Translations under genes and position numbers: made by a program
Notes under the pieces: model-generated
What the model was told of the DNA's origin: nothing
Seen by the model: only the letters and a program-made list of their open reading frames with translations
Database searches by the model: none
Shown here: piece after piece, positions 2,030 to 37,388 of the stretch
How positions within the stretch are numbered: position 1 is the stretch's first letter
Layout of the letters: every line of letters starts with the position of its first letter
Virus record (IMG/VR): IMGVR_UViG_3300030012_001430
Location: 6,156 to 70,155 of that record
DNA from: a virus
Length of the DNA stretch: 64,000 bases
Direction: 5' to 3' (one strand)

Positions 2030-2932
2030 TTAATACGCTCCTGATGTGAAATCAGACACAGATAGGCTGTATAGGTCTTCTTTCGATAGACCAAACATAT
2101 TCTGCATCTCTCTCACCTGTTCTCTCAACCCCATTGCTGATGTTGTGTTACCCGAAGCCTTCACTAGACTTTCTTGAGTTACTCTGTATTTTCTCTGCAT
2201 TCTTCCTGCAACCCACAATCCAGCAACAACCTTGTTCGGTGAGAATCTCAAATGCTGCTCTTGATAGAAAGTCTCCAAGAACTGAATCATGCTCATCGCT
2301 TCCATTCGATATCCTGTGGGCATCTCATCCAACCTATCCAAGATGGATGATGCCATAGTCATCGCATTCTCCTGTGTGAAGACATACGACTTTCTGAAAT
2401 GCCTCGCTACTCTCTTACCCCAACGTGAGATATACTTCCTCTCAACCATCGAGTATCTACTATGCTCTCTTATGTTCATAGGCACTTTACTTTCCTTCAA
2501 TATGAAGAAGGTCAAGGCTGCTGCTCTATGTTCGACAGAAGCACCTCTGAACACATGCTCGTTATTGAGCGAACGAAGATACTCCTCTACCTTCTTCTTG
2601 ATAGAGGAACTAACTTGATAGTTAGATAGAATCATCTGAGACAAAACAATAGTTCTGTTATCTGCCTCAGATAATGCAGAGGCATACATGTTGTGCTTCT
2701 TCATCCTAACCATCTGATTGTGATTGTAGTTGGATTTGGTCTCCATGATTAGAGAACCCAACCTGTTTGTCGGTTCGTGTGTATGATTACCATCCTTTAG
2801 TATTGATGTGGTTTCCTCAAACGGTCTGATGACCTGAACCAAACCACAACTGTTGCATACGTTCTCACCCAATACATCATCGAAGAAACTATCATGTTCA
2901 CCACATTCGGGACAAGCCATGACTATCTCCAT
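2030..2932 (-). CDS. tfb: transcription initiation factor IIB (TFB) homolog
   Basis: N-terminal zinc ribbon CPEC...GENVCNSCGLV followed by two cyclin-like helical repeats; about 300 aa. Confidence 0.85.
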   Translation of the reverse strand: MEIVMACPECGEHDSFFDDVLGENVCNSCGLVQVIRPFEETTSILKDGNHTHEPTNRLGSLIMETKSNYNHNQMVRMKKHNMYASALSEADNRTIVLSQMILSNYQVSSSIKKKVEEYLRSLNNEHVFRGASVEHRAAALTFFILKESKVPMNIREHSRYSMVERKYISRWGKRVARHFRKSYVFTQENAMTMASSILDRLDEMPTGYRMEAMSMIQFLETFYQEQHLRFSPNKVVAGLWVAGRMQRKYRVTQESLVKASGNTTSAMGLREQVREMQNMFGLSKEDLYSLSVSDFTSGAY

Positions 2933-4384: not shown

Positions 4385-6270
4385 ATCTCACAGACTCCAC
4401 CTGCACAAGCAAGTTCTCCTTGCAAGTCGGTGTTGTCCTCTAACTCAACAACTTCAGTCAAATCAATCTCAGTCAGAAGTTTGAGCATAGTTTCGTATTG
4501 CTTCTTGCTTATCGGTTCGTGTGGTGCTTGCTTGTAGACACCACCATCGAACGGTAGAACAGATAGACCATTGTAGAAGTCTCTGTTCTTCCACATCCAG
4601 TTTCTCACATCATCCCATTCATCCTCACGGATGTTGACAGTTGCAGAAACGTTGTGAGTGTTGACACCTCTGTTGTGTCCTGTTACAACCCAATCAACAG
4701 ATACTCTCTTCACTCTCTCCAACATCTCCAATGCTGATTCCTCTCTTGTTATTGAAGTTCCATCAGGAGTCTTCTGTGGTATTGAGATGATTGCCTGATT
4801 AGGATTGTGATAGTCATCCTCAACCAAGTCGGGGAACTTCGTTATCAGATAGTTGTAGATTGATTCCGTCTTCAACACTCTGATTCTCCTGATGTAGTAT
4901 TCAGACCACCAAGCGTGAATGCCTGATGATGTTCCCATAACTAGACTGGTTGTTCCAGCAGGTTTGACACAAGTGATTCTTGCTGCTGTGTTAATGCCCA
5001 ACGCATTAGCGAAGAACTCATTCGTGCTTCTTGCTTTGTTAGCAGCAGACTCCATATCTAAATCTAGAACTCTACCACTTGCTATTCCAGTCATTGATAC
5101 ACCGAGTAGTGCATCTTTCTCAGATGTCTTCTTCCATACTTCTCTGAGGTAATGGAAGTCAGTGTAGGATGCTTGCAGTGTTCCTAAGAACGTTGCATGT
5201 TCTACTCTCTTGTTAAGGTCAGACTGACTACTTACATCTGACACATTCACTTCTGTCAAGTTGCAGAACTGATATGGTCGAAGTGCTATCTCACAACAAG
5301 GGTTAGTTCCCCAATCCTTATCGTTGCTGAAATAGAATCCGGGTTCACCTGAACCTGAGTCTTGAACCCTCTTCCATAGATTGTTGAAGAAGTCCCTCTT
5401 GATTCTGTGTCGTAGTAGAACTACTGAGTTGTTTGCTCTTGCTCTCTGTGGGTTCTTCTCCCAAAAGTGTCCTGACTTCGATGTTATCATGTCATCGTCA
5501 TCAGCACTGAACAAACTGATTAGTGCTGCTCTGCGAATACCACCTGCTAACACTGCATCTGCGATGTAGCAAACGATATCGTGTGCTTCTAGTGTAGTTA
5601 GTTTGTCGCCGTTGTTCTTGTTAGCGAGAATACCCTCGACCTTCACTAGACATTCCTTCAGAGGTTGTGGGCCGGGTGCTTTTCCTCCACTGGTTTTCAG
5701 TGGGCTTCCCTTTGGCCTGACATCTGAATAGTCGAACCTGACTGTCGTTGCTCTCTTACCAATATAAGACTCAAACAGAACCTTGACTGCATCTGCCCAT
5801 CCTTCGATGGAATCAGCAACTAGATGTCTGTAAGTTCTCTTTGGATTAGGCAATCTAATCTCAGGCAACTGGTCTACATGATGTCTTTGCACCGAGTAGC
5901 CAACGCCTGTTCCTCCTAGTAATAGGAACATTGCCTCTGAAAACGACAGGTAATGGTCGATAGGCATGTATGCACAATTGTATACTCTGTTTGGTGAGAG
6001 TTCAATCGGCTTACCTGCAAACTGCATCGACCTCATCGAAGGTAGTATCTTCTTTGGGATAACATAGTTATCATAAGTGTCGTGAATCTTCTCGTAGATT
6101 GTTTGTTTTGTTTCTTCGGGTAGGTCTCTCTTTCTGATTGAGTCCAAATGCATCTGTCTGTTTCTCTGACAAATCTCTTCCCAAGTTTCCTTTCGCTGGT
6201 CTGCTTCTTTCCACTTTGCATACTTCATATGCACAGTGATATCTGATAGTATCTCTTGTTGTATTTCCAT
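4381..6270 (-). CDS. nrdJ: class II (adenosylcobalamin-dependent) ribonucleotide reductase
   Basis: YNCAY, GGIRRAALISL, TNPCCEI thiyl-radical motif, QFCNLTEVN, CVKPAGT, C-terminal CAGGVCEI. Confidence 0.95.
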   Translation of the reverse strand: MEIQQEILSDITVHMKYAKWKEADQRKETWEEICQRNRQMHLDSIRKRDLPEETKQTIYEKIHDTYDNYVIPKKILPSMRSMQFAGKPIELSPNRVYNCAYMPIDHYLSFSEAMFLLLGGTGVGYSVQRHHVDQLPEIRLPNPKRTYRHLVADSIEGWADAVKVLFESYIGKRATTVRFDYSDVRPKGSPLKTSGGKAPGPQPLKECLVKVEGILANKNNGDKLTTLEAHDIVCYIADAVLAGGIRRAALISLFSADDDDMITSKSGHFWEKNPQRARANNSVVLLRHRIKRDFFNNLWKRVQDSGSGEPGFYFSNDKDWGTNPCCEIALRPYQFCNLTEVNVSDVSSQSDLNKRVEHATFLGTLQASYTDFHYLREVWKKTSEKDALLGVSMTGIASGRVLDLDMESAANKARSTNEFFANALGINTAARITCVKPAGTTSLVMGTSSGIHAWWSEYYIRRIRVLKTESIYNYLITKFPDLVEDDYHNPNQAIISIPQKTPDGTSITREESALEMLERVKRVSVDWVVTGHNRGVNTHNVSATVNIREDEWDDVRNWMWKNRDFYNGLSVLPFDGGVYKQAPHEPISKKQYETMLKLLTEIDLTEVVELEDNTDLQGELACAGGVCEI

Positions 6271-8794: not shown

Positions 8795-9035
8795 CTTTGT
8801 TCTTATGCTTGAATCTCTTAATCATATCATTCAAGTTGTTCTTAGTTGTAGCAGTCATGAACTTCTGACCACCACGAAGGAATATCAGGATACTGAAGAA
8901 CTTCTCAATGTGTTCATGTTCTCTGTTCCTGAATCTGTCCATCAATGGGTCATCCTCATCCAACGGTCTCCAAGTGAATGCTTGCATCTCCTCGACAGAG
9001 ACAATACCATTGGTAAATCGGATATATCCTTTCAT
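8745..9035 (-). CDS. hypothetical protein
   Basis: ATG overlaps the upstream stop. Confidence 0.6.
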   Translation of the reverse strand: MKGYIRFTNGIVSVEEMQAFTWRPLDEDDPLMDRFRNREHEHIEKFFSILIFLRGGQKFMTATTKNNLNDMIKRFKHKNKGEQYEYNNENMGAESP

Positions 9036-9184
9036 TCTTCTTCAATTCCGTGTAATGCTAACCACTCACTGTAAGTCGGTTCGCACTGACACAGACAAGG
9101 GACAGGTTCTTTCTCCCCATCTGCGGTTTGTAAAACTGCCGTTCCAGTTCCATCACAAACACTGCAATCTTCCTTTCCTCTCAT
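9032..9184 (-). CDS. DnaJ-type zinc-finger microprotein (50 aa, not in ORF track)
   Basis: MRGKEDCSVCDGTG...VPCLCQC; GGTG immediately upstream of the start. Confidence 0.65.
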   Translation of the reverse strand: MRGKEDCSVCDGTGTAVLQTADGEKEPVPCLCQCEPTYSEWLALHGIEEE

Positions 9185-9198
9185 CACCTTAATTATTC

Positions 9199-9777
9199 TC
9201 ATATTAATCCCAACCTCGTTAGCAAGGCATTTGCCTCTTGTTCATGTTCAAAGGACTTGTTTAGGTAGTGGTCTCTCGGCCACCACTCCGGTTCTTCTCT
9301 CTTAGTCCAAGCAGCGAATCGCCACTTGTCATCGAGATAGTATTGACGATACTTCTCGATTGTCGTCATCTCATCAAATCCATCTGCTTTCCTACACTCC
9401 ATGTGAGGAGAGATAGCAATAGCGAATGGCGTAAGTCCAACATCAGGAAGAAGACTCTCTGCTTCATCCATCTGTTCTGAATACCTGTTCATCTGAACTT
9501 CGACTTGATGAATGCGACCATACCTGTGAGTATACTCCCTGCATAGTGCATAGGTATGCTCACGCAACCACTGGAAGTTCTGTCTTGTCTCTCTCGCCCA
9601 AATAGTAGATGGGTGATTCAACATCACAGGCTTCCAACCTGCTTCCAAACCAAGATGGTCTAGAATAGTAAACAGCATCTGCAAACTCTCAGTTGGCATC
9701 TTGACTACATGCTTGTCCAGCATCATCTTTGCACTCGTTGTTGGGCTTTCGTCTAAAGTAAATATATTCATTTTCAT
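9199..9777 (-). CDS. pyrimidine-dimer DNA glycosylase/T4 endonuclease V-like family protein
   Basis: MNIFTLD...DKHVVKMPTESLQML...NHPSTIW...NFQWL...EYTHRYGRIH signature. Confidence 0.8.
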   Translation of the reverse strand: MKMNIFTLDESPTTSAKMMLDKHVVKMPTESLQMLFTILDHLGLEAGWKPVMLNHPSTIWARETRQNFQWLREHTYALCREYTHRYGRIHQVEVQMNRYSEQMDEAESLLPDVGLTPFAIAISPHMECRKADGFDEMTTIEKYRQYYLDDKWRFAAWTKREEPEWWPRDHYLNKSFEHEQEANALLTRLGLI

Positions 9778-9790
9778 TTCCTCCTATTGT

Positions 9791-10209
9791 TAATCGAATG
9801 TGAAACAGAGAAAGACAGAGACCGCCACAGCCTCTACTACAATGCCAAGCACGTTTGTCTTTTTTATCTCGTAGTAAAACTCTGCTCACAGTTGCAGTAT
9901 ATCAGAAATACCAATTACGCACACGGCTGCAATGGAACGGGAAGATAAAGCCGATTTGCCGTGTTCTCCCGTCTGATATTGTGAGTGTGATATCGGATAA
10001 ATGCATGGAGGAGATGATTCCATCACTGCTTTAGATTTGCATTTTTTACCGCAGTAAACCGATGTTTGATTGTGAGAGGGGGGAAGAAGGTCTGTTCTGT
10101 GCCATTACCTACGGGTAGGGAACTGCATTGTGGTAGAACACATTGCCAATGTTGTTTATGTAACCGAATTAACCTGCTGTTATTTTTATACCGGACAGCC
10201 ATTCGATTG
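9791..10209 (-). ncRNA. candidate large structured RNA (about 420 nt)
   Basis: closing pair AATCGAATG 9792-9800 / CATTCGATT 10200-10208; many internal stems and crossing pairings; no credible ORF. Confidence 0.5.
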
Positions 10210-10377
10210 TTCCACGGTTTGGAATTTAACACACCGCTTCTCAATGAGTGCAGTGAACCAAACCTTATCGAACGAACTCGTTTTTCACGCCTACTAATAT
10301 TGTCGCTAGACTCCATGTTCGGTGCTTCTATTACAACCCTGTCATCTTTCCTTCTAATTATTTGGAAACCCCCAAGT

Positions 10378-10434
10378 CTCCACGTTCACCGAGCAACCGC
10401 TAAGATGCTCTTGGTTCTACGAACGTTTGTGGAG
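10378..10434 (-). other. long bulged hairpin just downstream of the 10440..10763 gene
   Basis: CTCCAC..GTTC..ACC GAGCA / TGCTC..GGT..GAAC..GTGGAG. Confidence 0.5.
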
Positions 10435-10439
10435 TGTGA

Positions 10440-10763
10440 TTACTCATCTCTTCTAGAGACAAGTAGTAGAGTCAGATATCCAATCAAGTCCTTGATGATA
10501 TCGTCATCTGATTCTAGTGAGTCATTACCGAGAACAAGCCTGTTCAACTTGTCATCGATTCTGACTTTGATTTGTTCTTCTTGGTCTGCATGAGAAAAGA
10601 ACCTAGTAGGATTCAACACTGAATCCCCATACTGCCTGTTCTTCTGAAGAAGCATAGTCTTCATCTCATCGCATAACTCAGCAATCCTTCGCTGAGAATC
10701 CGTCATCGCATCTTCTGTTTTGCTTGGTGTCTTCGCACCCCAATTGTTCTTTTCTTCTGTCAT
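10440..10763 (-). CDS. DUF1599/nucleotide-modification-associated domain 1-like protein
   Basis: LLQKNRQYGDS...RIDDKLNR...DLIGYLTLL signature. Confidence 0.75.
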   Translation of the reverse strand: MTEEKNNWGAKTPSKTEDAMTDSQRRIAELCDEMKTMLLQKNRQYGDSVLNPTRFFSHADQEEQIKVRIDDKLNRLVLGNDSLESDDDIIKDLIGYLTLLLVSRRDE

Positions 10764-10784
10764 GTTATTTCCAACCTGTTTGTC

Positions 10785-11160
10785 TTTTTATCATTTATTA
10801 TCATAAATTATCAGTAGATGATAAAATACAACTTTAGAGCAGTGTTGCACTTTTCGCCCATTTTATCATTTTATCAATTTTATCACGTTCTCCATAGGAG
10901 AGAGAGAGTAGTATATGTGACATATAGTAGTAGTATAGATGATGATAATAATGATAAAATGATAATATTCAATAAAATCAACTATTCTAGCAAGATTTCG
11001 CACATTTCTATTTTCTCACTTGATGATAAAATATGAGAATATATGAGAATATCAGAAATCCTGTAATTACACTACGATATGTGATATGAAAATATGTCAT
11101 TAGATATCCATATGATATATATGATATAATATACATATAGGGAATGTGATTTACATCCTT
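10785..11160. repeat. AT-rich iterated region at the strand switch; candidate replication origin
   Basis: many TTTTATCA/TGATAAAA copies in both orientations; tandem ATATGAGAAT; ATATG-rich run. Confidence 0.55.
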
Positions 11161-11280
11161 TCTCTGAACAGTAGTTTTTGGTAAGTATAAATAAAGACAA
11201 CTAGCGAATGTCTACTAAATGCGGTTATAGAAACTACTGCACAAATAAGAGTCAGCCAATGGAAACCCACAACTGAATCT

Positions 11281-11320
11281 GAGCAACCCTATTCCAATTC
11301 ATCGCCTTATAAAAGAAGTA
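11281..11320 (-). promoter_or_regulatory. leftward copy of the repeated promoter
   Basis: minus strand TTTTATAAGGCGATG-N8-TAGGGT. Confidence 0.65.
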
Positions 11321-11378
11321 CCACCCCACTAGCCTACCTAAATGCACTGCTGTTGTGCGTAAACTCAGAATATTATGC

Positions 11379-11444
11379 AACCATATGGTTAGACAACTTT
11401 GCTCGCTCTAACCTCATAAGGCGATGCAAATCCATAAGGTCATG
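11379..11444 (+). promoter_or_regulatory. repeated promoter cassette, copy 1
   Basis: AACCATATGGTT, stem GGTTAGA/TCTAACC, CTCATAAGGCGATG-N8-TAAGGT-CATG. Confidence 0.75.
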
Positions 11445-11567
11445 AAGATAGTAAGTTGGTCTATTGAAGCAATGTTAGAGAATGGTGAGACAATACAATT
11501 AGCAGACATGCCTGATGATGTCGCTAGTGTAGTTGATGAATGGTTATCAGAATTGGAGAGTGATTAA
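11442..11567 (+). CDS. acidic microprotein (41 aa, likely leaderless)
   Basis: MKIVSWSIEAMLENGETIQLADMPDDVASVVDEWLSELESD directly after promoter copy 1. Confidence 0.7.
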   Translation: MKIVSWSIEAMLENGETIQLADMPDDVASVVDEWLSELESD

Positions 11568-34823: not shown

Positions 34824-37388
34824 ATGACAACATCAGGCGTATCCTTTGAGAAGGAAACTAAGGCTCTATCAAAAAGAGTTCTAGATTTCTTTGAGAGGGT
34901 GCGTTATGCATATCTATCTGCAAAGGAGAATCCGAAGGAATACGGTAAGAAGTGGAAGTCAACTGTGAAGTCTATTCGTGAGGAATATGATGGCTTAGGA
35001 GAGTTCGCCTCAGAACTGAAAGACAGTATCACAGAGAAGGAACTCTTCGATGACAAGATATTCGATGCTGAGAGCCTTCTTGCTAGAAGAGTCTATGAAG
35101 ATGTAAAGAGAATGAGATTCGAGTCGAAGGGAGCATCCGACCCATTCTCTGAGCAACTAGGAGACAAGGTTCTAGAGGTTCTTCTAGAAGACAAGGCAAC
35201 ATTTGCAGCATTCATCCATTATGCATTGCGAAGCCATTCAAACCCAATACCAAAGAAGGCATGGCAAGAGAATGGCCTAAAGCCCGATGAGATAACTCAA
35301 GGATACATGGGTCTAGACTTAGAAGACAAAGACATCCCCCTATACATAATAGAGCATTATGGTGACGACAAGGACTCTAGAAGAGTAAAGGGTAAGTTCA
35401 AGGAAGCAAGAGAGTTACTAGAGAAGGTATATGATGAGAGTTACTCAGAGGAAAAGTGGGACTCTCTAGTAGAGGTTGACATCGCAAAGTCAGAAGAGGA
35501 GAAAGAAGACATTGATTTCATAATACCGAACAAACCAATGTATCGAATATTTGAACTCGATGATATGAAGGACATCAAGGGATTGAGCGGTGAGTATGTT
35601 GTTCAAGAGAAGTATGACGGAATGAGAATACAGATTCACAAGATGGGAGATAACATCAAGATATACTCATACAACGAGAAGGATATCACTGATAAGTGTC
35701 CTGAAGTAGTCGAGAAGATGGGTAAGAAAGGGATAGGAGATTGCATACTGGATGGAGAACTACTTCTCTTTCAAGGAGATGAGGCATTACATAGAGCAAG
35801 TGTGATTACTCATGTGTTCAAGAAGAAGATACCCGATACTAAACTAAGGGCGCATGTGTTTGATGTGATGAAACACGAAGGAAAGGACTTGATGGATGAG
35901 CCTCTAAGAGAGAGAATCAACATAATGTTCTATCAATACTCACAGCATTCTTCTGAAGAACTTGCTTTCCCCTCAAAGAAAGATACTAGAATCGCTGACT
36001 CCATGAAGGAAGTCGGGGAGTATGCAGAGAAGATAATGGAGATGCCAACCTCAGAAGGAGTTGTAATCAAGGACATAGAATCAACTTACTACATGGGTAG
36101 GAAGAAGAACCCGAAGTGGATTAAGTGGAAGAAGTTCGTTGACCTAGATGTGATAGTTCTAGAAGACAAGAAAACGAAGAGTGGCCTACATTCCTATACA
36201 ATGGGTATTGGTCCTCTCACTGCTGAACAGACTAGGGAAATGAAAACAATGGAACTTGATGACAAGAACTACCTTCCTGTTGGTAAGGCATTGAATACCA
36301 AAGTCGAGGTTGATGTTGGAAGCATCATTCGTGTAAAGGTGGATGAAGTCACCAAGAAAGGAAAGGGATTCAGTCTCTATTCTGCTAAAGTGATAGAGTT
36401 ACCTGAAGTGGATGAGTCTGACAAACTAGAGACTTTAGAACAACTAGCGACTAAGACCAAGAAAGCATTAGTCCCTAAGCATCCTTTCGTAAAGCCATCT
36501 GATTTGGCTAATCCATTGACTGTGATAGCAGAGTTGCAGCAAGAGAAGAGAGACAAAAAGAGAATCAAGAAGTATATTGTGACTGATTATGTTCATGGAG
36601 AAGCAGAGATAATCTGCAAGCATGAGTTAGATGGTTTCACTGTTTATGGTTTCGATGGAGACCAATTGATGCAGAAGAATGCATTGCATAACATGGATGT
36701 ATGGAAGGAACAACTAGAGAAACTAATGAAGTCTAGGAAATCGAAACTAAGAGTAGCAATTAGGAAGATAATAGAGGACAATCAGAAAGCAATGGAGTTT
36801 GATGAACTAGAGGAGAAACTCAGAGTAACAGAAGAGGATGCCTATGATGAAATCTTTGAGGGCAAGCCAAAGAATCTACTATCTTGGATGAAGAATCAAG
36901 ATGCATTCGTGTTCCTTTCACCTAACAGGTTTGATGTATCTCCTGAGAATATAGAGAAGGACGAAGATGATGAACTAGCAGGAGAGTTTGAAGTTCGCCA
37001 ACGTGAAGACGGTAACTTGGATTTTGTCATCCAAACAGACAAAGACAGAATGGCTTGGTTGATAGACTTAGAAAAGCCTGAAGACATCTTTGACTTATTC
37101 GGTAAGTCCGGCAAGTATCCAGCGAAGGTATCTGAGAAGATAGACAGCACGAAGATAATAGACAGTGGAGAACTTATCTTCGGCGTTCAACGAGATGGGT
37201 ATCATGAATATAGAATGGAAGGAGACAAGTTCCAAACTAGAATACACTTCAGGGTTGTTCCTCTAGATGAGAAAAAGTCTTGGATTGTATTCACAGGCAA
37301 GAAACAAGACATGTTGGACGATAAATCTGATGAGGGAATCATCGATATCACAAAGGACAAGTATAGCAATTTAGAACTACCTGAATAA
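34824..37388 (+). CDS. lig: ATP-dependent DNA ligase, multidomain
   Basis: motif I QEKYDGMR, III ILDGEL, IIIa FDVM, IV EGVVIK, V WIKWKK, then an OB fold; extra N- and C-terminal domains. Confidence 0.9.
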   Translation: MTTSGVSFEKETKALSKRVLDFFERVRYAYLSAKENPKEYGKKWKSTVKSIREEYDGLGEFASELKDSITEKELFDDKIFDAESLLARRVYEDVKRMRFESKGASDPFSEQLGDKVLEVLLEDKATFAAFIHYALRSHSNPIPKKAWQENGLKPDEITQGYMGLDLEDKDIPLYIIEHYGDDKDSRRVKGKFKEARELLEKVYDESYSEEKWDSLVEVDIAKSEEEKEDIDFIIPNKPMYRIFELDDMKDIKGLSGEYVVQEKYDGMRIQIHKMGDNIKIYSYNEKDITDKCPEVVEKMGKKGIGDCILDGELLLFQGDEALHRASVITHVFKKKIPDTKLRAHVFDVMKHEGKDLMDEPLRERINIMFYQYSQHSSEELAFPSKKDTRIADSMKEVGEYAEKIMEMPTSEGVVIKDIESTYYMGRKKNPKWIKWKKFVDLDVIVLEDKKTKSGLHSYTMGIGPLTAEQTREMKTMELDDKNYLPVGKALNTKVEVDVGSIIRVKVDEVTKKGKGFSLYSAKVIELPEVDESDKLETLEQLATKTKKALVPKHPFVKPSDLANPLTVIAELQQEKRDKKRIKKYIVTDYVHGEAEIICKHELDGFTVYGFDGDQLMQKNALHNMDVWKEQLEKLMKSRKSKLRVAIRKIIEDNQKAMEFDELEEKLRVTEEDAYDEIFEGKPKNLLSWMKNQDAFVFLSPNRFDVSPENIEKDEDDELAGEFEVRQREDGNLDFVIQTDKDRMAWLIDLEKPEDIFDLFGKSGKYPAKVSEKIDSTKIIDSGELIFGVQRDGYHEYRMEGDKFQTRIHFRVVPLDEKKSWIVFTGKKQDMLDDKSDEGIIDITKDKYSNLELPE

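Follow-up and report, generated by a model that had tools for sequence, protein, structure and literature searches.

It is rare to find large, highly structured RNAs whose function is unknown, and such molecules have time and again opened the way to new biochemistry. The element considered here is a non-coding RNA (ncRNA) of about 630 nucleotides (nt), encoded on the minus strand of a 64,000-nt stretch of viral DNA (IMG/VR virus record IMGVR_UViG_3300030012_001430, positions 6,156 to 70,155), referred to below as the window. The closest described systems are ROOL (RF03087) and GOLLD (RF01998), known from bacteria, their phages and prophages. Like the RNA of the window, they are gene-free elements of 0.5-0.8 kb with many helices and pseudoknots, of unknown function, borne by tailed viruses and built as a variable periphery on a conserved core. 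They differ from it by their bacterial hosts, the hosts being apparently Archaea here, by the absence of any sequence or structure match at E <= 10, and by the lack of a tRNA gene in the window. ROOL and GOLLD are reported to form homo-oligomeric complexes made of RNA alone (PMC12286853). By analogy, oligomerisation would be a testable idea for the present RNA.

Other large or viral RNAs offer partial likenesses. According to published accounts, OLE RNA (~600 nt, Bacillota) is similar in size, in its intricate fold and in its blocks of invariant unpaired nucleotides; it differs in being cellular and in acting with Oap proteins at the membrane, whereas the present RNA is viral, has no Rfam match and has no such genes seen nearby. 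The manA RNA (RF01745), likewise a marine viral pseudoknotted RNA, sits beside nucleotide-metabolism genes. The candidate structured RNAs previously drawn from IMG/VR span 29-151 nt in a survey that shares with the present analysis its source and the use of covariation in viral intergenic regions; the RNA is not described there as a whole, and single hairpins of it could be among the candidates (Fremin et al. 2023, PMC10690425). Literature searches gave no account of a magrovirus RNA of this sort, nor of any comparably large or ornate ncRNA in archaeal viruses. The RNA of the window belongs to a real family that is not in Rfam, a large, modular, multi-pseudoknotted ncRNA of marine archaeal viruses.

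A non-coding stretch with covarying helices

The window is held in a 70-kb IMG/VR virus record with an estimated completeness of 72%. Its minus-strand genes are tightly packed except at a gene-free gap of 662 nt (9778-10439), bordered by a 107-amino-acid (aa) minus-strand gene that ends at 10440 and by a 192-aa minus-strand gene that starts at 9777. An initial annotation of the window had noticed a gap in a tightly packed operon, which is real, and had placed there a candidate structured RNA of ~420 nt at 9791-10209. This extent was too short: the RNA is ~630 nt long and its 5' end lies 230 nt past the end then claimed. Its limits are the following.

~10439 to ~9806, minus strand: whole non-coding RNA, ~634 nt, both ends approximate
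~10439, minus strand: 5' edge of the RNA, marked by the conserved UCACACUC just past the upstream stop codon in subgroups A-D of the family (defined below)
~9806, minus strand: 3' edge of the RNA, after a hairpin and a pyrimidine/U tract

No consistent open reading frame (ORF) was found in the gap across six genomes compared. The sole notable one (10023-10316, 97 aa) is not conserved, and five related contigs present different short frames instead. Variable sites are distributed over the three phases as 54/50/58 in the RNA stretch (p = 0.74) versus 46/34/105 in the neighbouring gene (p = 7e-11), and the internal alignment gaps of the RNA stretch are mostly of 1-2 nt. The even spread over the phases indicates that the stretch does not code for protein. 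Several G-U pairs are invariant, e.g. columns 194/304, 198/271 and 418/450 of the group-A alignment; they would be A-C mismatches on the other strand, which places the RNA on the minus strand of the window.

The structure is carried by covariation. The group-A alignment (A7) comprises 12 sequences out of the 13 distinct ones of group A, a partial one being left out, and its model consists of 123 pairs in 20 helices including one pseudoknot. In this alignment 97.7% of the cells are paired, compared with 38.6-45.5% when partners are slid by 1-3 columns, and 33 pairs are altered on both sides compared with 0-6 in the slid controls. In the percentage paired, the doubly changed pairs, the doubly changed cells and the covariation score, A7 was not equalled by any of 500 column shuffles. 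RNAalifold predicted 113 pairs on six sequences, of which 28 were double-changed. Run on 16 diverged core sequences it returned only two pairs, on account of the alignment; MAFFT failed to align group B to group A. Helices in the diverged members were parsed by anchored regular expressions, and H20, the H5 region of L073, L078 and L079, the subgroup D H14 and some H15 choices were read by eye (L numbers designate the loci of relatives). The covariation among homologues on which the initial annotation had made its candidate depend is thus strong.

The RNA does not correspond to a catalogued class. Rfam 15 yielded no match at gathering score in the whole window, no family at threshold in the diverged relatives, and noise only at E <= 10 across 9500-10600. 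Models of ROOL, GOLLD, OLE, HEARO and raiA gave no match at E <= 10 in the window locus, L010 and L006, and none at E <= 0.1 in eight diverged loci; the only match in the Rfam scan of the diverged members (42 kb) is a tRNA in L093. No tRNA or tmRNA gene was detected in the window by ARAGORN. The absence of a tRNA, RNase P or intron identity, which the initial annotation had stated from the letters alone, agrees with these searches, no such Rfam model being found at E <= 10. Its proposal of an uncharacterised large viral ncRNA with pseudoknots is supported by the covariation, the non-coding pattern, the lack of an Rfam match and the contigs from RNA libraries described below.

Conserved core and pseudoknot modules

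Family members were gathered from several searches. A search with the 192-aa protein retrieved ten viral contigs. In five of them window positions 9972-11200 are kept at 83-90%, on par with the flanking genes, and a block at ~9888-9972 is variably present or absent among these five. A degenerate pattern built on the most conserved motif was used for further members in viral, metagenome and prokaryote contigs. The viral scan gave 25 stretches, including a second, diverged group B; seven were dropped as coding, by third-position variation, and a further seven as devoid of every other family motif. The metagenome scan added 19 loci, and the doubtful L049 was dropped. Of the 45 pattern matches that the viral and metagenome contigs gave together, 30 belong to the family. 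The scan of cellular genomes covered one genome each of 185,579 prokaryote species (32.2 million contigs) and gave a lone match, Gemmobacter contig L057, which was without every other motif and was rejected. Clustering at 99% resulted in 13 distinct group-A and nine distinct group-B sequences. A profile of the downstream protein led to 80 additional loci, and four more subgroups were found by nhmmer and motif order.

Subgroup C: L063/L064
Subgroup D: L070, L073, L076, L077
Subgroup E: L078 (same contig as L008), L079, L082
Subgroup F: L088, L090

The RNAs of subgroups C-F measure ~420-850 nt. The family totals ~30 distinct sequences in six subgroups (A-F), and every one of them lies on a magrovirus-like contig, from marine viruses or metagenomes. 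Among 50,697 phage records, blastn with 9000-11000 as the query found no match. The nhmmer family profile has a single match in the window (E = 2e-161), and the core motifs are all found there in order: the UCACACUC start, the UUAGCG loop, H5 and the AAGAU junction, the CGNUAUAAAA loop, the GCAYAGNA hairpin, the 3' strand of H5 followed by CCC, the cap helix and the AGAGUUU tail. The RNA of the window is accordingly a member of the family. Its core is organised as follows.

10378-10434, minus strand: 5' hairpin H1-H3, with the conserved loop UCUUAGCGG at 10397-10405
10080-10373, minus strand: long-range frame enclosing the central domain, ~250 nt
10373-10370 with 10083-10080, minus strand: H4, GGGG with CCCC
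10355-10350 with 10090-10085, minus strand: H5, AGAAGG with CCUUCU
10349-10344, minus strand: junction AAAGAU
10099-10341, minus strand: central multibranch domain H6-H16, with covarying pairs in H7-H15
Within the central domain: H14, whose loop holds the conserved CGNUAUAAAA
Within the central domain: H15, with the loop UUCUAC
10232-10255, minus strand: optional branch H13, cleanly deleted in L003 and L004
10093-10104, minus strand: GCAYAGNA hairpin with an 8-nt loop (window version GCACAGAA), just before the 3' strand of H5
9806-9884, minus strand: 3' tail, with the conserved CAGAGUUUUAC...AUAAAAAAGAC (9884-9852) followed by a variable spacer
9837-9815, minus strand: terminator-like hairpin, from a terminator scan, kept in relatives with changed arms
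9814-9806, minus strand: tract CUUUCUCUG, directly after the terminator-like hairpin

Within A7, seven pairs of helices 1-3 are altered on both sides, e.g. ACGUUC/GAACGU becoming AUGCUC/GAGCAU, and the loop UCUUAGCGG is common to subgroups A, B, D, E and F. In H5, four of the six pairs are altered on both sides within group A. Across subgroups H5 occurs in at least six sequence versions, all complementary and always beside the AAGAU junction and the CCC run; within 10 x 16 nt the script keeps whichever complementary run is longest, a search space in which a chance run of 6 bp is no rarity. What gives this cross-subgroup result its weight is solely that H5 keeps a fixed place next to the junction and the CCC run. 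The loops of H14, H15, H17, H18 and H20 are kept while their stems change across subgroups. The GCAYAGNA loop is closed by two Watson-Crick pairs in all 16 sequences, and its outer closing pair is UA in five, AU in five, GC in four and CG in two of them. The tail motif is conserved in subgroups A-E and the tail is A-rich. A CUAG-centred palindromic loop is present in subgroups B, E and F, its place being taken by a 4-nt tetraloop in group A; kissing dimers via this palindrome were considered and set aside as inconsistent across subgroups.

Each virus carries zero to three self-contained pseudoknot domains, located between the core and a terminal helix or on the tip of the latter. Two are found in the window.

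9992-10063, minus strand: 3' H-type pseudoknot domain, aligned in 15 sequences
10063-10059 with 9996-9992, minus strand: H17, covarying
10056-10051 with 10029-10024, minus strand: H18, covarying
10023-10019 with 10009-10005, minus strand: H20, covarying
10044-10039 with 10004-9999, minus strand: crossing helix H19, AAAUGC with GCAUUU
9985-9981 with 9889-9885, minus strand: terminal cap helix, CUCAC with GUGAG, whose tip is the plug-in site for optional modules
9899-9979, minus strand: optional module 1, H-type pseudoknot of ~80 nt
9979-9972 with 9906-9899, minus strand: Pb, AUAUCAGA with UCUGAUAU
9971-9966 with 9943-9938, minus strand: Pc, CGGGAG with UUCCCG
9964-9958 with 9927-9921, minus strand: crossing helix Pd, ACACGGC with GCCGUGU

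Judged from the aligned sequences, covariation supports both H-type pseudoknots. All four helices of the 3' domain hold across subgroups A, C and D, and H17, H18 and H20 covary. The middle pair of H19 is UA in ten and AU in five of the 15 sequences; these changes occur only within group A, so that no cross-subgroup change bears on H19. The 3' domain is absent in the minimal relative L079, which makes it a module itself. Module 1 was aligned from six distinct copies of groups A and B (alignment A6): 96.8% of the cells are paired versus 26-51% when slid, and five pairs, three of them in Pd, are altered on both sides versus 0-1 in the controls. It was found by nhmmer only at the cap-tip site. Compared alone with Rfam at E <= 10, it gave only a 7-bit match to a long ncRNA, and no ribozyme or riboswitch. 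In other relatives the tip of the cap carries a GCAA tetraloop (L004), a plain hairpin (L003, L020), a CUUU loop (L079) or module 2 (L006, L073, L076), and three modules stand in a row in L045 and L050. The loss of the 3' domain in L079 and the triple modules of L045 and L050 define the family as a core plus cartridges.

Most stems listed in the initial annotation are found in this architecture. CTCACA/TGTGAG is the conserved terminal cap helix, the stem ATATCAGA/TCTGATAT is invariant in six out of six module 1 copies, ACGGGAG/TTCCCGT is conserved with one covarying pair, and AAATGCA/TGCATTT, with one covarying pair (AU in six and UA in six of 12), is itself the crossing helix of the 3' pseudoknot. 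TGTTCT/AGAACA could not be retained as a stem: it links a hairpin loop to the GCAYAGNA loop and shows no covariation. Of the two crossing pairs proposed there, ACACGGC/GCCGTGT stood, with three covarying pairs, and TTGCAG/CTGCAA occurs in the window only. The 9-bp pair thought to close the RNA (9791-9799 with 10200-10208) did not survive comparison. Its upstream arm serves as the 3' strand of H11, where it covaries with another partner, and its downstream arm, CATTCAATT, is present in all nine readable relatives while the other arm varies. By an arithmetic estimate, chance alone would supply ~0.8 perfect 9-bp inverted pairs over a length of 662 nt.

Several smaller observations concern the same elements. 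A motif ACAUUCAAUUAAC (in the window ACAUUCGAUUAAC, 9786-9800), located just upstream of the AGGAGG site of the next gene, is identical in nine relatives. It resembles the 5' strand of H11, with which it might in principle vie for pairing to the 3' strand, a possibility to which covariation lends no support. Module 2, of ~100 nt, is found at L006:3469-3700, at L073:1772-1900 and in L076. It contains CUGACGAG...GAAAAC in L006 (GAAAC-like letters overall), and a pseudoknot can be drawn in it by eye, CAAUUG/CAGUUG crossing GAAGAC/GUCUUC; no hammerhead or other ribozyme model matched module 2 of L006 at E <= 10. The H20 loop was considered as an anti-Shine-Dalgarno mimic, an idea dropped because subgroup D is without CCUCC. 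A promoter inside the RNA before module 1 was also rejected, the TATA-like letters being the covarying H19 arm.

Expression, gene context and rival explanations

The RNA is present in RNA libraries, as the metatranscriptome check suggested in the initial annotation revealed. Twelve metatranscriptome runs from five studies contain 5-17% of the sampled words of a 2.2-kb stretch, and contigs of four runs from four studies fall within 9776-10418.

9776-9967, 9806-9960, 9820-9961, 9979-10054, 10078-10418, 10080-10381 and 10099-10329: contigs from RNA libraries

A 195-nt contig from an RNA library is identical to the window, with a word depth of 112. Another contig ends at 9806, where it is followed by eight T on the plus strand, i.e. 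eight non-templated A on the RNA strand; located just past the hairpin and the pyrimidine tract, this A run is a weak hint of a 3' end. At 9960-9967 the contigs end where module 1 varies between strains, so that these ends are neither RNA ends nor evidence of cutting. In the four RNA runs that cover the RNA region, the flanking genes and 10700-11499 have little or no contig cover, a lack that does not constitute evidence.

The genes on either side of the RNA are the following.

10440-10763, minus strand: upstream gene, 107 aa, phrog_1485 (unknown function; PHROGs E = 1.3e-17), first gene of the leftward unit
9199-9777, minus strand: downstream gene, 192 aa, Pyr_excise-like (Pfam PF03013, E = 3.4e-8; phrog_624, E = 8.7e-51)
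9785-9780, minus strand: AGGAGG site of the Pyr_excise-like gene

Within the first leftward unit the RNA comes second, after the phrog_1485 gene. A phrog_1485 homologue is found upstream of it in 19 of the 22 A/B loci, the remaining three loci starting inside the RNA. In subgroups E and F no such homologue was detected beside the RNA, the search giving noise only (E >= 0.29), and the RNA is preceded there by a palindrome, TTTATCA..TGATAAA. This inverted repeat, TTTATCA(N)TGATAAA(C), lies 20-45 nt upstream of the RNA (L088:1510-1535, L090, L079:240-262) in these subgroups, where the RNA has no gene before it. It might act as a promoter cassette or an operator, or terminate the preceding unit. 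The gene that follows the RNA is variously Pyr_excise-like, of 142-152 aa, of 95 aa or helicase-like, the last in subgroup E, and other genes intervene between the RNA and the Pyr_excise-like gene in L006, L063, L070, L073, L076 and L077. Behind distant phrog_1485 homologues the gap is only of 2-221 nt (L069, L099, L100, L105, L112). Given the lack of phrog_1485 in subgroups E and F, the varying next gene and these short gaps, the RNA behaves like an independent unit that is not tied to a single gene. At L093:1126-1209 a tRNA gene (Rfam, 52.4 bits) replaces the large RNA behind a phrog_1485 homologue. On the other side of the upstream gene, 10700-11199 has a guanine-cytosine (GC) content of 26-34% and separates the leftward unit (the 107-aa gene and the RNA) from rightward genes that begin near 11424; it has the look of a divergent control region or of an origin.

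The reading preferred here, to which a probability of roughly 60% is attributed, is that of a ~630-nt minus-strand ncRNA from an uncatalogued modular magrovirus family, early-expressed, stable and trans-acting, comparable in kind with ROOL and GOLLD without being homologous to them. The RNA would be made early, behind the first gene of the leftward unit, and in other subgroups from what appears to be its own promoter cassette. It would accumulate as a stable, compactly folded molecule and act in trans. Some factor of the host or the virus would use it as a scaffold or be caught by it as a decoy, or else the RNA itself would be catalytic or self-assembling. Such behaviour would recall ROOL and GOLLD, and the neighbouring gene does not appear to be regulated in cis. 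A bolder version can be put forward only tentatively and is rather doubtful: marine archaeal viruses would possess their own class of large RNA machine, with a protein-free folding core, perhaps self-assembling or catalytic, and interchangeable pseudoknot cartridges, produced early so that a host process is commandeered or blinded. It would then stand as the first ornate class of ROOL/GOLLD scale in the archaeal virosphere.

A number of observations weigh against the preferred reading. The contigs from RNA libraries give no strand, ends or abundance, and such libraries can contain DNA. No promoter is visible for the RNA itself in subgroups A-D. In subgroups C and D, and in the A/B loci that were read directly, the RNA stands immediately 3' of the phrog_1485 stop codon, a position that also fits a structured 3' untranslated region (UTR) or an RNA partner of the phrog_1485 protein. 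No copy of the core was found by BLAST in the whole records of L007, L065, L069, L099 and L105, four of which are only 28-43% complete; the record holding L069 is 96% complete, which implies that not every one of these viruses carries the RNA. The group-A and group-B models disagree on the pairing around H6, H7 and H16, whose details are uncertain. The aligned sequences are related and column shuffles ignore phylogeny; the count of further pair types, 65, is no higher than the shuffle mean of 65.9 and was reached by 364 of 500 shuffles. Finally, the RNA does not fold better than dinucleotide shuffles, a result that the initial annotation had itself named as speaking against its candidate: the minimum free energy (MFE) has z = +0.31 for 9778-10439 on the minus strand, and z = +0.16 on the minus and -1.10 on the plus strand for the span first proposed. 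The evidence for structure is therefore covariation and not energy. The MFE test is weak for an RNA that is long, AU-rich and pseudoknotted, and the covariation outweighs the null z-scores.

Some of these data would suit a cis-acting part of the operon, that is, a structured 3' UTR stabilising or terminating the phrog_1485 mRNA, a leader for the next gene or an RNA partner of the upstream protein. The RNA begins within a few bases of the phrog_1485 stop where loci of C, D and A/B were read directly, it ends in a hairpin and pyrimidine tract 30-60 nt before the next ribosome-binding site, and a contig from an RNA library (run X1) joins the end of the phrog_1485 gene to the 5' end of a variant RNA. 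Such a role is nevertheless unlikely, since E and F carry the RNA without a phrog_1485 homologue, the downstream gene differs among subgroups, distant phrog_1485 homologues are followed by nothing longer than the short gaps mentioned above, and more than 20 helices with plug-in pseudoknots exceed the needs of known terminators or leaders. Quite improbable is a precursor array cut at a repeated boundary motif, AUCACACUC, into independent small pseudoknotted RNAs. This motif does mark the 5' start and recurs ahead of every module boundary, each module is a self-contained unit present or absent independently of the others (none in L079, three in L045 and L050), and a contig of run X1 over the last module and the tail reaches a word depth of 112. 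In the cases read, however, AUCACACUC is always the 5' strand of a helix (the base of H1 or the cap) and not a free linker, remote segments are held in a single fold by H4/H5 and the cap helix, and the contig ends at 9960-9967 coincide with strain-variable positions.

The possibility that a known class has diverged beyond recognition by Rfam (a group I/II intron, an RNase P-like, RT-14/retron-type or manA-type RNA, or a riboswitch in module 1) is very improbable. The conserved unpaired nucleotides of module 1 are aptamer-like in style, and RT-14 (RF02921) aligns end to end with the 5' 148 nt of the group-B locus L010 (L010:3165-3312) at 25.2 bits (E = 0.1-0.44), the likeness consisting of a hairpin with a UAAG-type loop followed by the run UAU.AAAGG.UUUA.UCC. 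This score is far below the gathering score of 48.1, nothing was found at E <= 10 in the window or the whole record, and sub-threshold matches appeared in six of 14 unrelated control genomes. Reverse transcriptase (RT) motifs are defined by their location beside RT genes (Weinberg et al. 2017, PMC5737381), and the search for the RT domain PF00078 gave no match in the 70-kb record, which is 72% complete, against matches in the control genomes. The RT-14 alignment of group B is most likely due to chance. For manA there was no match at E <= 10 in the whole record and none in the locus scans. No intron, RNase P, ribozyme or riboswitch model was found at E <= 10, and in every subgroup the upstream ORF is closed by a stop codon of its own; as both flanking ORFs are complete, with their own stop and their own ribosome-binding site and start, nothing is left that could be joined as exons, and group I/II introns were rejected. 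Hardly any credence can be given to a non-functional RNA, i.e. a decayed gene or a DNA element (an origin, a packaging site or protein-binding repeats) with chance pairing. The MFE results and the vicinity of the low-GC stretch 10700-11199, ~400 nt away and suggested as a control region by the divergent gene layout, would agree with it. It is contradicted by the 33 doubly changed pairs against 0-6 in controls, by the strand-specific invariant G-U pairs, by helices that pair through wholly different sequences in six subgroups, and by the absence of codon periodicity and of an ORF remnant together with the contigs from RNA libraries.

The family lends itself to structural study, with minimal versions (L079 and the GCAA-capped L004), expanded versions and clear module boundaries, and its diversity is sufficient for covariation-guided modelling.

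The virus and its likely host

Marine group II archaea are abundant and uncultured. A conserved and presumably early-expressed RNA of 0.45-0.85 kb is one of the few handles on how viruses of these archaea, the likely hosts, work. The assignment of the virus as a magrovirus-like tailed virus with a marine group II archaeon as host is made with moderate confidence. The window encodes a terminase, a portal, a prohead protease, a major capsid protein and a tail tube, along with a class II-type ribonucleotide reductase. By tblastn, the terminase reaches at most 28% identity. Two other genes bear on the host and on the type of virus.

2030-2932, minus strand: TFIIB/TFB-like protein, 300 aa (Pfam zinc ribbon, 27.2 bits for a cut-off of 29)
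34824-37388, plus strand: protein with an ATP-dependent DNA ligase domain, 854 aa, between the portal and the protease/capsid genes

The TFB-like protein matches the NCBIfam 'transcription initiation factor IIB' over residues 68-278 (E = 3.6e-9, below the curated cut-off), and phmmer gave no match for it among PDB sequences. A virus-encoded TFB-like factor argues for an archaeal host. The location of a ligase gene inside the structural module is described as a magrovirus trait (Philosof et al. 2017, PMC5434244).

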